Notes: generated by a model not told the origin, from the sequence alone. A stretch of DNA of 64,000 nucleotides from Curvularia clavata (GCA_023920165.1 CP089276.1:1984001-2048000), one strand, 5' to 3'. Shown: positions 1 through 52,160, counted from the stretch's first letter. Made by a program: numbers and translations.

Positions 1-326
1 CCGGCTTTATATTTTCTACACAAAGGCTAGGTTAGCAATATTAGTTGGCGTGGCAGGATAGTCTGCTCTGAGCTTTGTATTAAAAACCACTACTATTTGC
101 GCGGATAGGTCGTTAGCATTGTTGTATCGCCAATAGTGCCTATGTATCAATACTAGATTAAGCATGTTTGTCATTGGGATAATCGGCTCTAAGCTTCGTC
201 TTACTTGTCTCTATTATCTACACAAATAGCTTCTTAGCGTTGTTCCACCGCCCTTGGCCCAAAGACTACATCGAGCAGCCGCTCCAGTACTGTGGCACGT
301 GGCCTCTACTATAGCTCTATACGTAC

Positions 327-1433
327 TTATCTCCTCCCGAACACAGCCCCGTGAACTCCACCGTTGATGACTCCAGCTTGTTGGCCCGAGTTCTGACTAC
401 CAAATGTAACGTTCATTGCATGCGTTGCAGGTTGATGCGAAGACACATTCGCACTTTTCTCCCGGTCTTCCACTTGTACAGCAGGAATTGTTGACAACAG
501 CCCCTTCGCATACGCAGCGGCAGTTGCCGCCGCATAGTTCTGCCAACCCTTGTTCTTGTGAGAGTCTGCATAGTCACAGATGCCTCGGATGACCACACAC
601 GGGTGTTCTTCCATAACACCGGCAGCTTCCATCTCAAAGCAGATTGCTTCATGCTCGAGATGGACCCTGTTGCGTTCCACGGCAGATATCTGTAGCTGAT
701 TGCTCGAGGCGATATTGCCAAAATGGACAGACGGCTCATCAGTCGGTCGTGTGGCAGACTCCCCGCGTTCAAAACGCGAAATAGTGTAGTCTGCGTCGCA
801 GCAATCTTTGCAATCGTCAAGCTCAGTGCCTTGGTGCTGGTAGCCGTCCTCGAAGAGCCTGTCGCGAATGGGGCCTGGGTCATCGTACTGGCCTTGTCGC
901 TTCTCGTCGAGCTTAAGACGCATCTGCTTCAACGTATCGCAGATATTAATCTTAGACCACCCTTCCGATCGAAAATTGTTAACAGCGACCAGAAGATCAC
1001 CAGGAACGCCGTTAGTGTGTCCACGAAACTTGAGGCATCCTTGACCCTGCCAAGCGCCCTTGTCGTATTGCAACACCCCACCGTGGTTACCCCGCGGATA
1101 ACTGACGACTACGTCTCCTAGCACAATCTCCGAGGCAGCCCCAGCTGGTCCATAGCGAGGCACGCCGCCAGCGATACCGACGAGGAAGAAGTACTTAATA
1201 TTTGGAAATCCATCGCGCATTTTCTCAGCAAGAATTGCGGCTTGGCTGAGCCCGATTCGCCGCTGCACCCCCATGACGACCTTGTGCACTCCGATTCGGC
1301 CGCCTAAATAGAAAACGCCCTTGTGTTGGACCTCGTCCTGGGGATACTCCTCATCAAACACAAGTCGTGCAGCTTCCTTTTCTAAAGGCAAGGGGGAGAT
1401 CCACCCGATGGTGAAGTGATGATTCGAGGCCAT
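327..1433 (-). CDS. PNP_UDP_1 (purine/uridine nucleoside phosphorylase-like) effector protein with C-terminal amyloid signalling motif
   Basis: Single-exon 368-aa ORF with the fungal PNP_UDP motifs FTIGWISPLPLE, LVGIAGG, LGDVVV, FEMEAAG and IRGICDYADSHKNKGWQNYAAATAAAYAK; C-terminal tail VTFGSQNSGQQAGVINGGV. Confidence 0.9.
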   Translation of the reverse strand: MASNHHFTIGWISPLPLEKEAARLVFDEEYPQDEVQHKGVFYLGGRIGVHKVVMGVQRRIGLSQAAILAEKMRDGFPNIKYFFLVGIAGGVPRYGPAGAASEIVLGDVVVSYPRGNHGGVLQYDKGAWQGQGCLKFRGHTNGVPGDLLVAVNNFRSEGWSKINICDTLKQMRLKLDEKRQGQYDDPGPIRDRLFEDGYQHQGTELDDCKDCCDADYTISRFERGESATRPTDEPSVHFGNIASSNQLQISAVERNRVHLEHEAICFEMEAAGVMEEHPCVVIRGICDYADSHKNKGWQNYAAATAAAYAKGLLSTIPAVQVEDREKSANVSSHQPATHAMNVTFGSQNSGQQAGVINGGVHGAVFGRR

Positions 1434-1753
1434 GCTGCAAAAAGAAAAATCTCAATGATGGCTCCAAAGACGGTTGCAAAACTTGGGTGTTTGTGGTAGG
1501 TAGGAGATGTAAGAAAGTTATAGGCAGCAGTGCAGATAAAGAGCAGCGCTCAGCCTTGTCACTCAGCCTCGTCGCAGCCATCAATCAGGTTTTTCGTGAC
1601 AAGCTTGGCCTTTGATCATGATCAACGATTTGTGGAAATAACGGCATATGCTCATAAACAGCGTTAGGATTAGTGAATCGAGCAAGCTAGATAGCACTGT
1701 ATCTACATTTTCCGCCCACTAATTTACTACTAGACGATATCACGCTTGTTGCA

Positions 1754-3001
1754 CTATCGCACACTAGAGAATACACCAGTTTTCAACTTCGAGAGAGTTA
1801 TACGCCTAGCCCAACGATTCTTCCACAGCCACATAACAACCATCACAACGGCCATAGGGGCTGTGAAGGCCCAGTAAACCCAGAAATGGTGTGACACAGT
1901 AAACGACGAACTTCCTATGTCTCCACTGGGCTCAAAAGAAAAGAAGCTCATCCCAAAAACCGTCTTCAATCCAGCCATTAGCCAGGTATTGTATCAAATT
2001 AGAACGAATAACTCACAGAAACAAAGGTAGCTGGCAGAAAGGTCATCGTGACCACAGCAATCGCTTTCATCGCCGAAGCTTCGCTCGTCGCTTAAGATCG
2101 TTCAGCCAGCCCATCCTGAAATCGCAGCTGGAACTCGAGATGTTCTCCGACTGTGTCTCAGCGTCTACGCTTTTCATGTTGCCGAAAAGGTCAATCTCCA
2201 CTCTAGATATCTCATGGCGCTGTCGAATTGAGCTGAGCGATCGTGCTGCCACCTTCAAAGTCTCGTTCACATGCACGCCATGTCTTGCGATCTCGTGTAA
2301 GAGAACTTAGTCAGTCTCTTGCGTCGTCCTCTGCCTTTGCGTAAGCGCTGATGCCATTAGCCACTAGATATTTCTACTTGTAACTTACAGCTTCCTATCC
2401 GCTGATATGGTTCCTGGTAGACCAGACCGAGTCATCGTACAGCCGAAGCAGCTCAGAAACATGTGGCGTGAACGTTCTCTTTGGCCTTAGCTCGTCGTAC
2501 GTATGCTTGGTGGTAAAGCGAGACCAGAAGGCTAACACAAAACCTCCCATAAGTCCCTTAAATGCTGCTCAGCGCTGGGTTTACGTGCTGTAGCACTTCA
2601 CTTTCTCATTGTCGTCAAGCCAGAGGCTATGTCCAATAAAGCCATTGGACTGAACATACACCCTGTCGAACAATGTTGGAGGGATCTTTAGCTGGCGTTC
2701 TATCCCTTCTCGAAGCCTTGGAGAGGCGTCGAAGTAGCCTTAGCGGACATGAAACCGCGTGTCGTCAGACTGTGCTCCAAGCTGTGGCTGAAGCGACTCA
2801 CGTCACTTGGATTTCGGCAGAGTTGAGCTCCTACTTCGTGGCGAGAAGCAGATCTTTGAGGTGGATGTTCTTTGCACCTTCAAAACATCGTCCCATGTCC
2901 TTTCGTGTCGCTTGCACAAATTCGCTGTGATGTCTAGACGATAAGCACCTGCCTCGATGCTTGCAGTACAGAGCGCTTGCCTAGTTTAATGACTTCACCA
3001 T
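1754..3001 (-). pseudogene. Degraded fungal CorA-like (Mg2+ transporter-type C-terminal TM) gene
   Basis: Minus strand reads MKAIAVVTMTFLPATFVS|GTGAGT intron|...VFGMSFF...FWVYWAFTAPMAVVMVVMWLW (CorA-like TM1, GMxF loop, TM2); upstream parts are broken by stops and frameshifts; 5' end approximate. Confidence 0.6.
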
Positions 3002-3251
3002 TGTTGATTTTGTTCGTCGTCATTTTGAAGTGTGCCAAAACGGTTATGGAGCCGTTGCTTCGAGTTCCCATCTAAGTATTTAGAGATTAGAAGCAAGTCG
3101 CGAGGCAGTGACGGAGGTGGCTGGAAAGACAACCTTTCCGAACATCAGAAGGCCACGTCCAACCAAGCCTGCCAGGCTGAAGCCCAGCCAAGGCTTCACC
3201 ACAAACATCAGCAACGACTAACGCACGACTGTACAGTATCATCACGCTCTC

Positions 3252-6119
3252 ATGGCCTCCGCTACCTCGTTTGGCGACGCTAACGCCGGTCTCCAAGCGG
3301 GTATCATCAACGGCCCGGTAAGCGCTGCGTTCCAGCTGCCACCTGGTGAGTTGCAGCACTGCCCTAGATGTGCCAGCGTTACTAACAGACCGCTTCAAGA
3401 GCGACGCGAGACTCCACCACCCCCATCAATCGTGATACCCTTCCGCCGCGACGCCGATTTTATCGAGCGAGGCACAATACTCGACCGGGTCGAGCAAATA
3501 TGCGCGGCAACAGACGGGCGGGCTGCGCTCGTCGGTCTTGGCGGCGTAGGGTAAGTTAGAGGCAGCTTAGCCGGTAGTATATGCTAAATGTAGAAAAGCA
3601 AATCGCAACTTGCCATTGAGTATGCCTACCGCACGCGCGAGCGATCGCCTGAGACGTGGGTGTTCTGGGTGTACGCTAGCAATGCCGTGCGATTTGAACA
3701 GAGCTACCGCGAAATTGCCAACCGTGTGAAGCTTACTGGCCGTGAGGACCCGCAAACCAATATATTTGAGCTAGTCTACAACTGGTTGTGCAGTACTAAA
3801 CAACAGTGGCTGTTGGTGCTAGATAACATCGATGATTCTCGTTTTCTTCTAGACCACGGCACTGCGAACCCAACAACCGTATCCAAACCGCTGCGCGACT
3901 ACCTTCAATACGGCGACCGTGGCTCAATTCTCGTTACAACCCGGAACAAAGAGACGGCGCTAGAGCTAGTTGAACAGCGTAACGTCATTATGGTCGAGCC
4001 GCTGGACAAAGCGAGCGCAGTCGCGCTCCTCAGAAAGAAGCTGGGAGTGCAAAGCAATCAACAAGACAACAAGAGCGACGTTGCCGAGCTCGCCGCAGCG
4101 CTCGAATGCATGCCACTCGCCATTGTTCAGGCCGCAGCATACATCTCACAAAGAGCACCTCGATGCTCTGTGGAACAGTACTTAGAAGAATTCCAGCGCA
4201 GTGAACACGAGGAAACAAGCCTCCTAGACTACGAAGCAGGACAGATCCGAAGAGATAAAGAAGCGAAGAACTCAATCATCGTTACTTGGCAGATATCGTT
4301 CGAACATCTACGGCAGATCAGGTCTTCAGCAACCGACCTGCTTTCTTTTATGAGCTTCTGTGATCGGCAAGGGATTCCTGAGGCGCTAATCCGCTGCGAG
4401 GACGGTGGAGAAACCGACGCATCATCAAACATCAGCAAGCGTTCTATGGTTCGACACCTCAAGTGGTTGCGCCGCTCTCGAAGAGGGGAGTCAAAAGATC
4501 AACAAGACCATAAGAAGCACGTCAATGATTCCAGGACGTTTGATGATGATATACTAGCGCTGCGCAACTTTTGCTTTATTTCTGTTGATGGGGATGGTGA
4601 AAACTTTGAGATGCACGCGCTTGTACAGCTAGCAACCCGTAGGTGGTTGGCGGCGAACGGAGAGCTTGAGCGGTGGAAGCAGAAGTTTATCAGTAATCTT
4701 AGCGCGGCGTTTCCAACGGGAGCATACGAGAACTGGGCAGCCTGTCAGACACTCTTTGTGCACGCTAAATCAGCTGCTACACTAGAACCAGAAGCCAAGT
4801 CTTCACAGATAGAGTGGGCCACGCTGCTATACAACGCAGCTTGGTACGCATGGCAGAAAGGAAGCGTAGTTGATTGCGAGAATCTAGCAGTAAATTCGAT
4901 GAACGTACGACGAAAGTTGCTAGGAAGTGAGCACAAAGATACGCTAAGTAGCATGGGAATGGTAGGACTAGCATATATTTTAGGTGGTCGTTGGCGGGAG
5001 GCAGCAGAGATTGGAGCAGAAAAGATGGTCATAAGTATGAGGACTTTAGGATTAGACCATCTCAACACGCTAACGGCTATGCATAATCTGGCGTTTGCGT
5101 ACTGGAGTCAAGGGCGCTGGGATGAGGCAGAGAATCTATACAAACAAGTGTTAGAGATGCGCAAGACGAAGCTTAGCGCGGACCATCCAGATACGCTAAA
5201 TAGCATGGACTGCCTAGCATCAACATACAGAAGTCAAGGCCGGTGGAAGGATGCAGAAGATTTAGAAGTAGAGGTTTTAGAGACGAGCAAGAAAAAGCTT
5301 GGAGTAGATCATCCTTCTACGCTGGCTAGCATGTCTAGCCTGGCTTCGACATACTTGCACCAAGGGCGCTTGTATGAGGCGGAGGATCTATACAAACAAG
5401 CGTTGGAGATGGACAAGACAAAACTTGGAGCAGAGCATCCTTACACACTGACCAGTATGGCCGGCCTGGCCTCGACATATAGAAGTCAGGGCCGGTGGAA
5501 AGATGCAGAAGAGCTAGAGGTGGAGGTGTTAGGAACAAACAAGATAAAGTTGGGAGCAGATCATCCTTCTACGCTGACTGTTATGAACAATCTGGCATTG
5601 ACGTACTGGAACCAGAAGCGCTGGGATGAGGCCGAGGATCTGCAAGTGCAAGCGTTAGAGATGCGCAAGATGAAGCTTGGAGCGGACCACCCAGATACGC
5701 TGACTAGTATGAGTAGTTTGGCGTCGACATATAGAGAGCAAGGGCGATGGGACGAGGCCGAGATACTGTTTATGCAGGTGATAGAGACAAGCAAGGCGAA
5801 ACTCAGAGCAGACCATCCCTCTACGCTAACTAGCATGCGCAACCTAGCGTCGACATATATGGAGCAAGGCCGGTGGGACGAGGCTGAGACGCTATTCGTG
5901 CAGGTAATGGAGACGAGCAAGACGAAGCTTGGAGCAGACCATCCCACTACGCTATTCAGCATGCATAGCCTAGCTTTTACATGGAAAGCACAAGGTCGGA
6001 TAGCAGATGCTATAGCTCTAATGAGCCAGTGTTTGCAGCAGCGTCAGCGAGTGCTAAAAGCTAGCCATCCTGATGTTCAGTCTTCTTTAGCAGCTATAGA
6101 ACAGTGGGAAGCCGAGTAG
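3252..6119 (+). CDS. Fungal NLR (STAND): N-terminal amyloid motif, NB-ARC-type NTPase, TPR repeats; exons 3252-3345, 3400-3550, 3599-6119
   Basis: Spliced Walker A GLGGVG|KSQLAIEY, Walker B WLLVLDNIDD, GSILVTTRN, LPLAIVQAAAYI-like motif, MHALVQ, then about 8 repeats of LGADHPxTLxSMxxLAxTYxxQGRWxxAE; introns GTGAGT..AAG and GTAAGT..AAG restore the frame. Confidence 0.92.
5040..6000 (+). repeat. Array of ~126-bp (42-aa) TPR-coding repeats within the NLR
   Basis: Recurring GACCATCC/GATCATCC...ACGCT...AGCATG...CAAGG.CG.TGG units at ~126-nt spacing. Confidence 0.85.
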
Positions 6120-6702
6120 CTTAGTGCTGGTTTTCCACATATGCTAGATAGCTTGCTACCTAGCAAGAATAAAATGTAGAACTAGCAATCTATGTGGTAG
6201 TCTAGCTTTGTGCTGTGTATCTAGCTTAATGTGTTGCATTAGACCTGTTTTACATACGAACGTGGGTTATGATTGTGAGCTAGCTAGTTATCATATCTTA
6301 TTTCTCTATGATTGGCGGAGACTAGCAAGGGGAACCCTAGGTTGACAGGGGTCTTTTCAAATCGTTAGTTGCATAAAGGATGAGGGCCGTTTTGCAGCTT
6401 ACTGTAGTGATCGATAGTGTGCTGTGATTCAGTGAGGATAGTTAGAGTCAAAACTGGTACGGAACTTGGTAGAACAGCAACAACCTCTCTGATAGGCTGA
6501 ATATAAGGCATCTATCGATAGGAAGAAAACTCTGAATTCATCGAACCATGGTTACGATAGCGCAAGGCAGCAGGGCAGTGCACAAGTGCTATAAGTACCT
6601 TGCTCTTGTGAGCCCTGTGAGCTTAGTCTCCAACACTCTTGACTGTAACTCCAATAGCACGTACTTCTTCAAACAAGTCTAGTTACAACCCCGTATACCG
6701 AG

Positions 6703-7617
6703 ATGGATCCAGGATATGTCTCGTTCGAGGAGAATTTTGCTAGGCGACTACCACTGGAGCTCAAGCAAATGGTTTTCAAGTGGGCGGTAGTGGGCAACAG
6801 TAACGACATCGAGATCAATTTTGACAATATCGTATCTCCTGAGCCATCATCAGCTTTGGGATTTCTAGCAAAGCTGAAGGTGTCATATCCATGCGATGTC
6901 TACAATGAAGCGATACAATATTTGGCGAAGCCGATGTTTCGGTGGGTGTTTACAAGTGACTCAGAGCCGCATCGTTACCTCCTCAAGGTTTTCCACAAAC
7001 AAGCCCCCTCAGAGCTCCGAGAACAAATCCAGCACGTCTACTTACGGCGGATGAGGGTGGCGAGTCTCGTCAACTCAATGGAATTCCCTATAAACACACC
7101 GGATCGTTGGGATCTCAAATTGCCCAACCGGTCTGATTACTCTGAGTACCTTCAACGCATCGTCGGCAAGAAAAGATATCGATCTTTGCCAGACTTTGTC
7201 TCACCAATCCTCTCCGATTTTAAACTCGGCATGACCTTATTACCACGAACACTGCCATTCATCACCAAACTTGAGATTGGTCTCGATCTTTACGATTGTG
7301 CATTCCTGAACTGTATACACCATCCCTTCATTGACAGTTGGTCTAAGCGTGATGTAACTTTCCCACATGCACAATTGGAAATCTTTGACTACATTCTGCC
7401 GCTCAAAAGCTTCAAAAATATCTCAGAAGTCGACATTCGAGTCCTCTGGGGTGATTATTTTGGGCAAGGCAATGCCATTCATGGCGAAGAAGAAAAAAAC
7501 GTGAAACAGGAAATGCAAGAGTCCTTTGTGCATTTCCTTCGTGAGGTTGTCCCCGCAAAGTGCATCACTAGCCATGATGGGGACAAGATCCCGATGCATT
7601 CACCCAGCAAACGTTGA
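6703..7617 (+). CDS. Hypothetical protein with N-terminal F-box-like motif (RLPLELKQMVFKWAV)
   Basis: 304-aa ORF, TATA-like TATAAG at ~6590; no other recognisable domain. Confidence 0.6.
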   Translation: MDPGYVSFEENFARRLPLELKQMVFKWAVVGNSNDIEINFDNIVSPEPSSALGFLAKLKVSYPCDVYNEAIQYLAKPMFRWVFTSDSEPHRYLLKVFHKQAPSELREQIQHVYLRRMRVASLVNSMEFPINTPDRWDLKLPNRSDYSEYLQRIVGKKRYRSLPDFVSPILSDFKLGMTLLPRTLPFITKLEIGLDLYDCAFLNCIHHPFIDSWSKRDVTFPHAQLEIFDYILPLKSFKNISEVDIRVLWGDYFGQGNAIHGEEEKNVKQEMQESFVHFLREVVPAKCITSHDGDKIPMHSPSKR

Positions 7618-8043: not shown

Positions 8044-8923
8044 ATGGCTCCCCGAAAGCCTGCTGTCGAGGGCAAGGCTTCGAATACAAAGAAGGCTACT
8101 GCTGCCAAGAAAAGCAACGACGAGGTTGTCAAACGCGGCAAACGCGGATACCGGAAGTTCGGAAACGGCTTACTGAACGTAAAGCCCAAGGGTCCTGAGA
8201 TACAACTGTGGGTATATCAGGATTGTACTTTGTAAGAAGAGACTAACGTACGTCAGTGTCAAAGCGAATCAGCAGTCGCCCCTTCTACGTCTACCACCCG
8301 AGGTAAGTGTTGATTATCCCTTGTGCATGGAACGAATGTTGACTTTTCAGATCCGTAACATCATATGGGGACTTTTACTTGGTGGAAGAGTGCTGAGGCA
8401 CATGTTCGGGGCATCCGAGTCGTTTGGAAGTTTGCGCAACCACCATCTCGAGGTCCCGCTTCTGCGAGTATGCCGTCAGGTATACGCGGAAACTGCCTTG
8501 ATCCCACTTAAACAAAACCTTTTCTCTTTCCATCGGGAAACTGGGTTGAGAACTTGCTACAGGATGCTCAAGAGACATCTGTTTAACCATATTACTTCCG
8601 TTCAGTTTGAGCTCTCGATTACCCCCGGTGTCAACGTAGAAACAGCCTGTACTATTCTGTACGAAAGGATGTGCAAAATGCTCCAGCAACAATTTCCGGT
8701 TGGGTTGAAGGTGCTCACTGCGCGCATATTTTCCTGTGCTCTCGTCGATCGAGTCATCGAGGAAATAGGTGTAGATCATGTCCGCAAGGCGATCGAACAT
8801 GCTGCACCTGATATGTGCGTTAAAGTACGAGTTGAAGTCGCGGGGATGTCCTGGGGGGAATTCGACCCGAAGTACGCACTAAACACGATATACCAACATC
8901 AGTACATGCTAACACTAATATAG
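8044..8923 (+). CDS. Hypothetical DUF7730/F-box-like protein (3 exons)
   Basis: MAPRKP...GLLNVKPK|intron|NQQSPLLRLPPE|intron|IRNIIWGLLLGG...LLRVCRQVYAETALIP; TATAAA at ~7951. Confidence 0.7.
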
Positions 8924-50283: not shown

Positions 50284-52160
50284 ATGGCTTCGACTTTGTC
50301 CAGTAGTAGTAGTAGCAGTAGTAGTAATAGCTACGTCGACTTTCTCCAGCAAGCCAAGCGCAACTTCTGGATGAGCAACGCTCACCTCACAGAGGACGAG
50401 CGAAACCATGCCTGGTTCCAGCTGGCGTGCCAACCCACACAAGCCTCGACAGCCGACCAAATACCGCGCTCCATGCCCTGCCCCTCGTCCGACGTGACAC
50501 AATTCTCAGTATGGATTTGATTTGGTCCGCGCTCCTTGGCCCTGCTCTCTAACACGCCCTCCAGATGTCTGGCTCCGCTCCCGTCATGAACCGCTCAGAC
50601 TCGGCCATGAACGACAACATGCACGCCTACACCGACTACACCCTCTACTCGGACTCGTCGATGCACAGGCAGCCCGCCCTCCAGTCGCTGGCCGAGGCTG
50701 GCTACAGCACCGGCATCGCAGAGTACAGCGTTGACGATTACGTCAGCAGCTGCATCCAGCCAGACGGCTCCTCCTCCACCCTCCCCTTTCCCCAGCACTC
50801 ACAGTCGTTGCAACTGACACCAACCCCGCAGTGGAGTTCATCTTCCGATGTCTCTTCACCCGCCACCCCGTCAACCGCTCTGATGACCCCTGTTACTCAG
50901 TCCAGTAATATGAGCCGTCAGGGCAGTTGCAACCCTCAGTTCTTTGATCAAGTTTCCATGTTGCGTGTCCCGTCAGATTCTTCATGTATCATGCCCATCC
51001 TCTCAGAGGATGGGACCTTTCCTTATTCCTTTGGTGTCGAGTCAAAACCCATCAGCGAGTCCGCTGGTGTTTCTCCTTTTCTCTCCTTCACTGGCTCCTC
51101 CAGTGAAGCTTTCCTTACTTCTTCTGCTTCTTTGTCTTGTTCTGTTCCCGCAAGTGTGCCCGCACTTGCCTCTTCCGACATCAACGTCAACAACAACGAC
51201 CAGTCGTGCCTGGCGGAGGATATGCGGAGGTCGACTTCAATCACGTCTAACGTGGGCAACTCGAGCGAGGCTGCTGCTTCTCCCTCGACGGACTCACGTC
51301 ACTCGCAGCGCGAGCGTGAAATCATCGCACAAGCTGCGTCTCGCAAGATTGCCCCAAAGGCAATCGACAGCCAGAATGAGGCCGAGTCCAAGTCATCCAA
51401 TGCTCAGATGGCAAGGATACGGTCTGAAGATGGCTCGTCCAAAACTGTTGGTGTCATTGCTAAAACGCCCTATGTGCGTCCTCAGCACCCAAAGATCAAG
51501 TGTAATTTCTGTAACGAGCGGCCCGATGGGTTCCGTGGCACCCATGAACTCGACCGTCACATTGCCCGTGCCCACGCCTCGCGTAGGAAGGGTTACATCT
51601 GTGTCGACTCGTCGGCGGACCAGAAGTTTCTTGCCAACTGTAAGCACTGCCGTAACAAGAAGGTATACGGTGCCTACTACAACGCTGCTGCCCATCTCCG
51701 CCGTGCCCACTTCCACCCCCGCAAGAGGGGCCGGAAGGGCCGCAGCGACGAGAAGCGTGGTGGTATCGGTGGTGGCGACCACCCTCCCATGGAGTACCTG
51801 AAGCAAAACTGGATCAAAGAGGTGGAAGTTGAGAACAAGCCTACGCCTCAGTCTCCTGAGAGCAACTCGGACAACGACGCTCCCGAGTCCGCCGACAACT
51901 CCAACGCCGACACCACACCCTCGTACAACGTCGACACTGTTGCTGCCCAGTACCCCATCTCGCAACAGCCCCTGCCTATGCCCATGATCAGCCAAGTCTC
52001 TGTTGACCAACAGCCTCAATATATGGACTATGGTATGAGTATGCATGCAAGTGAGCCCATGGTCTTTGACAACACGCCCTTTTTCGACCCAAGCCTTGCT
52101 GCTGCTGGTGCTCCCACAGACATGAGTAATTTCCAGTTCGACGCCTACATGGGTTCATAG
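50284..52160 (+). CDS. Putative zinc-finger transcription factor (DUF7896/KLAP1-like), 2 exons
   Basis: CNFCNERPDGFRGTHELDRHIARAH, CKHCRNKKVYGAYYNAAAHLRRAHF, KRGGIGGGDHPP; intron ~50509-50565. Confidence 0.8.

Follow-up and report, generated by a model that had tools for sequence, protein, structure and literature searches.

The 64,000-nt stretch of the Curvularia clavata genome analyzed here (GCA_023920165.1, CP089276.1:1984001-2048000; hereafter the window) carries two divergently transcribed genes whose products share an 18-residue motif: a stand-alone phosphorylase-like protein of the PNP_UDP family, referred to below as the effector, and a NOD-like receptor (NLR). That they form a two-component NLR/effector pair with a shared PP-type motif was supported by every in silico test that we ran. 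In our view, they probably constitute a fungal NLR signalosome of two components, as in PNT1/HELLP, with the difference that an enzyme takes the pore-former's place as executioner. A first-pass annotation had proposed such a locus between positions 327 and 6119, which turned out to be the outer ends of the two stop codons. Both genes are intact and transcribed, the NLR is correctly spliced, and the motif is, on sequence grounds, a divergent member of the PP (Ses_B) class.

On the NLR side, the motif (SFGDANAGLQAGIINGPV; 3267-3320, plus strand) spans residues 6-23 and is preceded by MASAT. The effector copy (TFGSQNSGQQAGVINGGV; 354-407, minus strand) spans residues 343-360 of 368, preceded by NV and followed by HGAVFGRR and the stop codon. 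The motifs had been described as lying at the protein ends; they are near them and not exactly terminal, with five residues before the NLR copy and eight after the effector copy. Both peptides were recovered by translation, with 11 of 18 positions identical as described, and no other local alignment between the full-length proteins scores higher (Smith-Waterman score 63). None of 5000 shuffles of NLR residues 1-40 reached this score (mean 19.6, standard deviation 3.8, maximum 42), and 100000 composition-keeping 18-mer shuffles gave 2.1 identities on average and never more than 9. When all six frames of the window were scanned for N-x-G-x-Q-x-G, both motif sites were found, with one other occurrence, in a stop-broken frame (50874-50894, minus strand). 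The motif is G/N/Q-rich, the effector stretch having no charged residue and the NLR stretch a single one (D9).

The PP motif is defined by N-x-G-x-Q-x-G-x-N, starting at NLR residues 5-9 (Wojciechowski et al., 2022). An earlier consensus, from a 2012 paper, reads FxGx(x)NxGLQLxGxNxGxL, and the G-phi-Q-phi-G core of PP is reported to occur in RHIM as well. Ses_B (PF17046), which is Pfam's PP profile, was the sole amyloid-motif family to match either peptide at E ≤ 10, with 17.4 bits (E 0.0041) for the NLR N-terminus and 12.8 bits (E 0.12) for the effector tail, relative to a gathering cut-off of 23.2 bits. Related proteins score higher on the same profile: the tail of the effector homologue P0072 passes the cut-off (27.1 bits), and the NLR N-terminus at the related locus L002 reaches 21.3 bits. 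The half-core N-x-G-x-Q-x-G is present on both sides, as N-A-G-L-Q-A-G in the NLR and N-S-G-Q-Q-A-G in the effector, and the NLR core G-L-Q-A-G fits G-phi-Q-phi-G. The positions also follow the PP rule, with the NLR motif at residues 6-23 and the effector motif within the C-terminal ~100 residues. The PP-like motif that had been proposed was therefore retained as to family and half-core, and not as the strict N-x-G-x-Q-x-G-x-N palindrome. Scoring against the PP, sigma, HRAM and PUASM classes, which had been suggested as a check, left PP as the only one that fits, at a sub-cut-off Ses_B score.

The other classes were considered and rejected. Neither sigma (PF17106) nor HET-s/HRAM, represented by the Pfam HET-s profile, matched either peptide at E ≤ 10. 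PUASM is described with the pattern F-x-G-x-G-x-Q-x-x-G-x-G-x-F and with NACHT or NACHT-WD40 partners, mostly in Sordariomycetes, and fibrils and prion behavior have been reported for a PUASM peptide. Like the motif studied here, it is a C-terminal feature of PNP_UDP proteins that stand alone, and it matches an NLR N-terminus. However, neither window peptide fits its pattern, and the partner is an NB-ARC/TPR protein, not a NACHT one.

An independent profile was built from 50 NLR-side motifs of 119 homologues, with the NLR of the window excluded, and was searched against 121 PNP proteins and 121 decoys with the last 45 residues shuffled. At E ≤ 0.01, it recovered 34 of the 121 real proteins and none of the 121 decoys. 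The window effector was found at residues 344-361 (E 2e-4, 14.8 bits), the best decoy scoring 5.6 bits.

The effector is encoded by a single exon on the minus strand (coding sequence 330-1433, stop codon 327-329) and is a stand-alone, methylthioadenosine nucleosidase (MTAN)-like protein of 368 amino acids, whose exact sequence is present in the protein collection. Pfam PNP_UDP_1 (PF01048) matches it with E 4.4e-7 and 30 bits, above the cut-off of 25.1, which bears out the expectation of an enzymatic PNP_UDP effector rather than a HeLo-type one. In an alignment of 47 homologues, the PNP domain ends at approximately residue 313 and the enzyme part is strongly conserved (mean column identity 71%), with E267-M268-E269 and D290 invariant and D287 conserved in at least 90%. 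The tail that carries the signaling motif (residues 325-368; 330-461, minus strand) has a predicted local distance difference test score (pLDDT) below 50 and no secondary structure in the AlphaFold2 (AF2) model. The core of this model (predicted template modeling score 0.70, mean pLDDT 64.6) is recognizable, and its best Foldseek matches are methylthioadenosine/S-adenosylhomocysteine (MTA/SAH) nucleosidases (E ~1e-6, target TM 0.50-0.57). The 47-homologue profile likewise matched MTA/SAH and futalosine nucleosidases in the PDB (best E 4.7e-6), aligning E267-M268-E269 with the E-M-E motif and I-C-D287 with the I-S-D motif of MTA/SAH nucleosidases (4jos, 4bmx). By manual count of the alignment, D287 falls on D198 of the H. 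pylori enzyme, the residue changed in 'D198N' structure entries. In MTAN, this Asp is catalytic and the E-M-E motif binds ribose and base, roles partly indicated by the names of such mutant entries.

Two further profiles matched within effector residues 233-314: the PADLOC CBASS 'PN-superfamily' effector profile PDLC00759, which covers residues 239-308 (partial, E 2.5e-7), and PDC-M60C (partial, E 2.2e-10). A preprint reports that Cap17-like PNP domains remove adenine from ATP and dATP and that one fungal NLR has a PNP domain acting as an ATP nucleosidase in vitro. By analogy with the Cap17-like domains, the effector enzyme is most likely an ATP/adenosine-type nucleosidase. The PNP_UDP domain also occurs in cis, since five of the six long open reading frames (ORFs) tested are fusions to NACHT-type or TPR NLRs. 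In the sixth (L009:1151-3865, plus strand, 905 amino acids), PNP_UDP, HeLo and DUF7580 occur together, so that a single protein has both an enzyme and a pore-former domain.

The NLR gene (3252-6119, plus strand; ATG at 3252, stop codon 6117-6119) has three exons and encodes 921 amino acids. Exon 1 (3252-3345) encodes 31 amino acids including the N-terminal motif. It is followed by intron 1 (3346-3399; 54 nt, GT..AG, in frame and stop-free), by exon 2 (3400-3550), encoding a linker and the start of NB-ARC with most of the Walker A loop, and by intron 2 (3551-3598; 48 nt, GT..AG). Exon 3 (3599-6119) encodes the remaining NB-ARC domain, a DUF7779-like winged-helix region and about eight TPR_10/TPR_12 repeats (approximately nt 5040-6116). 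The Walker A loop GLGGVGKS (residues 77-84, nt 3534-3605) is interrupted by intron 2. The gene model is identical, letter for letter, to a 921-residue database protein (P0121) recorded under the name 'kinesin [Curvularia clavata]'. Pfam detected NB-ARC (E 2.2e-7, 30.9 bits vs. a cut-off of 23.5) and TPR repeats (TPR_10, E 7.8e-109 over eight stretches; TPR_12, E 1.5e-89), in agreement with the TPR sensor proposed beforehand. An NB-ARC domain with its Walker A loop, followed by TPR repeats, is the arrangement of the PNT1-like NB-ARC/TPR class. The absence of any other N-terminal effector domain was confirmed as far as Pfam is concerned: no family matched the first 99 residues (read unspliced) at E ≤ 0.01.

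To place transcripts, we used contigs from public runs (X1, X9, X11 and X13) aligned to positions 300-6200. The run label 'RNA?' is a guess, and it is the joints lacking the introns that show the existence of a spliced form. X9 and X13 cover parts of the stretch only, their uncovered parts being uninformative, and contig data of this kind cannot rank expression. The joint 3345|3400 was found in X1 and in X11 (record 6), and the joint 3550|3599 in X1 (record 3) and X11 (record 6). One X11 contig of 1532 nt, placed at 3226-3344, 3399-3549 and 3598-4859, extends from the ATG through the motif exon into the NB-ARC region. In two runs, contigs thus join the motif exon to the exons for NB-ARC, and exon 1 belongs to the NLR mRNA as the first-pass annotation assumed. 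On the effector side, an X1 contig spanning 300-1963 has no joint inside the gene. X13, a recorded RNA library, contributed eight pieces with at least 99% identity, which fall on the PNP gene, the NLR and the stretch separating them; they may include DNA carry-over.

Two further observations concern the NLR transcript. An unspliced contig of 112 nt lies at intron 1 in X1 (depth 4.8); retention of this intron would add 18 residues between the motif and NB-ARC because it is in frame and stop-free. Within the TPR array (5140-5950), X1 and X9 contigs show the joints 5173 to 5739, 5644 to 5719 and 5762 back to 5593, to be explained either by strains that differ in repeat number or by slippage of the assembly among repeats that are nearly identical. 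Variable TPR numbers have been published for pnt1.

Linkage of the two genes in other genomes, which the pairing had been expected to show, was found. Nine of 79 metagenome loci, in which the PNP stands alone and has a tail of 50-67 amino acids rich in G, N and Q, were chosen by eye. Two of these (L006, L007) lie on contigs of 1.2-1.3 kb, too short for a neighbor, which leaves seven loci with usable flank. In four of them (L001, L002, L003 and L063), an NLR-type gene whose N-terminus matches the tail follows or faces the PNP gene, and no other part of the locus outside the effector matches the tail better. At L001, the NLR is divergent and 2.2 kb away, with a PP motif (WFGDANTGFQAGVINGNV) and TPR plus DUF7779. 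At L002, it lies in tandem 250 bp downstream, also with a PP motif (SFADGNSGLQAGNIYGPV) and TPR plus DUF7779. The NLR downstream of the L003 effector is of the TPR type and shares a different, matched tail, and the divergent NLR at L063, ~370 bp away, is of the NACHT-ANK type and again shares a different, matched tail. The score between tail and NLR of the same locus was reached by none of 35 control loci for L001, L003 and L063, and by two of 35 for L002. A change of tail class is accompanied by a matching change in the N-terminus of the neighboring NLR. This class-level co-variation is, in our view, the strongest in silico sign that the two genes may be a functional couple.

Named genomes provide additional cases. 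In Ascochyta rabiei, the PNP protein KZM25280.1 (P0059) is 70% identical to the window PNP and the NLR is KZM25282.1 (P0243); P0243 belongs to a 90% cluster represented by P0240, which shares 53% identity with the window NLR across the searched region. In Boeremia, a PNP and two NLRs carry the locus tags g522, g520 and g523. Between the window and L001, its close relative, the effectors are 91% identical (335/368), with residues 344-368, from the motif to the C-terminus, unchanged, and the NLR bodies are 58% identical (486/841).

The effector search returned 7934 proteins at E ≤ 0.001, and the best 120 were listed; the named homologues among them come nearly all from Pleosporales and other Pezizomycotina. 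We classified the tails of these 120 with simple regular expressions. The strict N-x-G-x-Q-x-G was the largest class (37), followed by 'other' (32), tails shorter than 30 amino acids (16), looser PP-like tails (11), tails with ...GGKVIQG... (10), tails for which the domain end was not found (10), sigma-like tails (3) and one long extension. Among the 32 'other' tails, 20 are visibly PP variants (e.g., FGNNTNGIQGRDFHGN). The sigma-type tails (Pfam NACHT_sigma; P0046, P0048, P0076) sit on homologues 72-78% identical to the window PNP. On PF17106 (cut-off 27.6 bits), P0046 passes with 31.1 bits, and P0048 (26.4) and P0076 (25.7) fall just below. The third tail class (...VNHVGSI.TAGGKVIQG...) is found on enzymes 86-93% identical over the domain (P0008, P0014) and also on P0015. 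Its label 'HRAM-like' was given by eye only, and Pfam found no amyloid-motif family in the examples searched (P0008, P0057, P0050 and the L003 and L063 tails). Because near-identical enzymes carry another tail class, the tail appears to be a swappable module on a conserved enzyme.

Homologues of the receptor's NB-ARC region were surveyed in the same way. Of the 120 listed, 64 have their Walker A loop at residue 60 or beyond and hence an N-terminal region, and 42 of these 64 carry a PP-like core (52 over all 120); the counts were made by pattern, leaving near-misses such as G-F-E-A-G and G-I-Q-A-A uncounted. Many of these PP-like homologues share genomes, several coming from one, and the set includes P0125, a second Curvularia protein. 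In an alignment of 36 homologues, F7, N11, G13, Q15 and G17 are invariant, with the reservation that the rows were chosen by motif pattern, which biases the N/G/Q/G columns and leaves only F7, G21 and V23 informative. On the effector side, the core variant G-Q-Q-A-G is common to P0001-P0004, P0075 and L001, and homologues outside this sub-clade read G-F-Q-A-G.

The closest characterized systems are PNT1/HELLP of Podospora anserina and PNT1/HELLP/SBP of Chaetomium globosum. PNT1 residues 1-31 and HELLP(214-271) are reported to form prions and to cross-convert, and the PNT1(1-31) prion to activate HELLP. The locus studied here shares with these systems an NB-ARC plus TPR NLR with the motif in the first ~30 residues, a C-terminal motif copy on the effector, a G-x-Q-x-G core flanked by N and G, and clustered genes. 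It differs in having a PNP_UDP effector, whereas the effectors there are a HeLo-like membrane protein or a SesB lipase, in its divergent motif (last N shifted by one, G-Q-Q-A-G, sub-cut-off Ses_B), and in having no third motif gene of the HELLP or SBP type. A search of the 64-kb window for a third motif-bearing effector of HELLP or SesB type found none. The enzyme also recalls the immune ATP nucleosidases Cap17 and DtcC (CBASS, Detocs) and the fungal 'NLRN' PNP domain in its PNP_UDP/MTAN fold with the catalytic Asp kept, in the match to the PADLOC CBASS effector profile (E 2.5e-7) and in its immune-type architecture. Those enzymes are switched on by cyclic nucleotides, through phosphotransfer, or in cis as part of an NLR, whereas activation here would presumably occur in trans via the amyloid motif.

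The combination itself has precedents. UDP-phosphorylase/STAND pairs that carry a sigma-type extension have been known since a 2012 description, and PP and sigma are reported to accompany pore-forming and enzymatic effectors alike (Wojciechowski et al., 2022). In supplementary file 6 of that study, 4 of 28 PP-type adjacent pairs have a PF01048 partner, and its Figure E sets the PF01048 motifs in the PP/RHIM cluster; co-aggregation is deferred there to later work. The A. rabiei pair KZM25282.1/KZM25280.1 is among those published (Wojciechowski et al., 2022). It resembles the window pair in motif class, effector family and NLR type, and differs in species and motif sub-variant (G-F-Q-A-G vs. G-Q-Q-A-G here), being a table row without functional study. 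Amyloid-controlled fungal cell death has been shown at the bench for the pore-formers HET-S, HELLF and HELLP, and the literature searched yielded no demonstration that templating activates a PNP_UDP enzyme. The description of the locus as a less studied pairing is thus fair for bench work and too strong for the catalogues, which list PP plus PNP_UDP pairs including a homologue of this one.

We propose that ligand binding by the TPR array would lead the NB-ARC domains to oligomerize, bringing the N-terminal motifs of the NLR together so that they would fold into a cross-beta nucleus. This nucleus would template the effector tail, and effector molecules would be recruited and aligned on the fiber. 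Enforced proximity might then turn on the nucleosidase, the active sites of its relatives being at subunit interfaces. The enzyme would most likely remove adenine from ATP or dATP, as Cap17-like domains do, with nucleotide depletion and cell arrest or death as the outcome. Amyloid templating between NLR and effector is suggested by the characterized relatives, and activation of the nucleosidase by proximity, with ATP/dATP as substrate, is put forward by analogy only. Tentatively, the whole may be pictured as a prion-like switch in which PP-type NB-ARC/TPR receptors, possibly many, assemble a Cap17-like nucleosidase on a fiber and cause ATP depletion. In such a switch, the polar G-Q-Q-A-G could be a safety catch that lowers self-nucleation, only receptor seeds converting the effector, and an exchanged tail would put the same enzyme under the command of another receptor clade.

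The two genes are 1.8 kb apart, and the gap is occupied by a transcribed gene remnant on the minus strand (1754-3036, ends approximate; X1 contig) with a two-helix GMN-type C-terminus, which stands outside the signaling pair. X1 record 1, a contig covering 300-3345, lacks its two introns (2388-2331 and 2016-1964), and the spliced product has no long ORF, being interrupted by in-frame stops and one frameshift. L001, of the related loci the closest, is collinear with the window, with 87% nucleotide identity over 303-2093 and 72% over 2456-4378, the drop occurring near 2455, at a deletion site. Relative to L001, the remnant has deletions of ~240 and 141 bp and reads F-G-M-S-F-F, whereas in L001 the corresponding frames extend further, their final two-helix segment containing F-G-M-N-F-F. 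Motif scans of the window found no motif copy in the remnant. Its pieces and the ORF downstream of the NLR (6703-7617) gave no Pfam match at E ≤ 0.1 and one weak match at E 0.2, and the C-terminal 69 amino acids of the remnant had best ESM Atlas scores of 0.82-0.83, below a meaningful level. The remnant is probably a decaying expressed pseudogene.

Elsewhere in the window, the ORF at 6703-7617 (plus strand, 304 amino acids from the ATG), directly downstream of the NLR, has no Pfam family, and the next one (8183-8923, plus strand) matches DUF7730. The rest of the window holds DPP IV-type peptidase, TAFII55, PP2C fragment, DUF3807 and zf-BED/DUF7896 genes. No other NLR or motif-bearing effector was found in the window.

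Several observations weigh against a templating pair of this kind. On both sides the motif reads N-x-G-x-Q-x-G-x-x-N, with the closing N one place later than in the full palindrome; the effector core has Q where the family has its first hydrophobic residue; and both peptides stay below the Ses_B gathering cut-off. The effector AF2 model is moderate only, with residues 90-141 below pLDDT 50. The decayed gene stands between effector and NLR, so the divergent transcription that had been described was upheld and the adjacency was not: the pair is linked, not strictly adjacent. Three of the seven related loci (L005, L048, L066) have no partner in the available flank, which for L066 extends 10 kb on each side. 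Finally, pair-specific co-variation within the PP class was absent, the cognate NLR being the maximum in none of five effector rows, and therefore the effector may answer to many PP-type NLR paralogues.

This last point leads to the alternative that survives best, namely that the PNP effector is a hub shared by a clade of PP-type NB-ARC/TPR paralogues scattered through the genome, the linked NLR being one activator among others and linkage a leftover of the origin of the module. It overlaps with the two-component signalosome and differs from it in wiring only; we regard it as a serious possibility, though not the likelier one. The PP-like core in 42 of 64 NLR homologues, several from one genome and P0125 included, speaks for it, as does the finding that cognate motifs are no more alike than non-cognate ones. 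In the literature consulted, NLR-side motifs likewise outnumber those on the effector side, and genes are described that co-occur although not adjacent. The contrast between window and L001 in the effector (91%) and the NLR body (58%) is also what such sharing would predict; a fast-evolving receptor beside a conserved executioner, as this comparison suggests, would fit an immune module and would fit a hub as well. Against it, four of seven related loci have kept the linkage, as has the published A. rabiei pair, which argues that the neighbor matters.

It is unlikely that the shared peptide serves non-amyloid docking, in which, in place of templating, the enzyme would bind the NLR one to one or be regulated through a third protein. 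The sub-cut-off Ses_B scores and the missing first hydrophobic of G-phi-Q-phi-G in the effector would suit such a role, but the profile places the motif in a family whose members, PNT1(1-31) and HELLP(214-271), form prions and fibrils. Moreover, the motif is G/N/Q-rich, nearly uncharged and on a disordered tail, and close homologues of the enzyme swap it for sigma (Pfam-supported) or for the third, unclassified tail. A decaying locus, in which the pair is non-working and heading for loss like the gene between, is more improbable still: the deletions, stops and frameshift of the intervening gene and the departure of the effector motif from the family consensus might point that way, but the two ORFs are unbroken and transcribed with correct splicing, the enzyme retains its catalytic residues, and the effector, with its tail, remains 91% identical to that of L001 with its residues 344-368 unchanged. 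Chance resemblance of two short, compositionally biased G/N/Q-rich ends is refuted, as composition-keeping shuffles never reach the match and the match recurs in related loci with its class changing in step with the partner.

The NLR/PNP_UDP pairing through PP is already catalogued, including a 70%-identical homologue, and the locus adds one member to it; for a specialist, the genomic finding holds no surprise. Its value lies elsewhere. With intact expressed genes, confirmed splicing and catalytic residues kept, the C. clavata locus is a clean candidate for testing the activation of a PNP_UDP enzyme by templating, and natural comparisons are at hand in the close relative L001 and in homologous enzymes that carry other tail classes.

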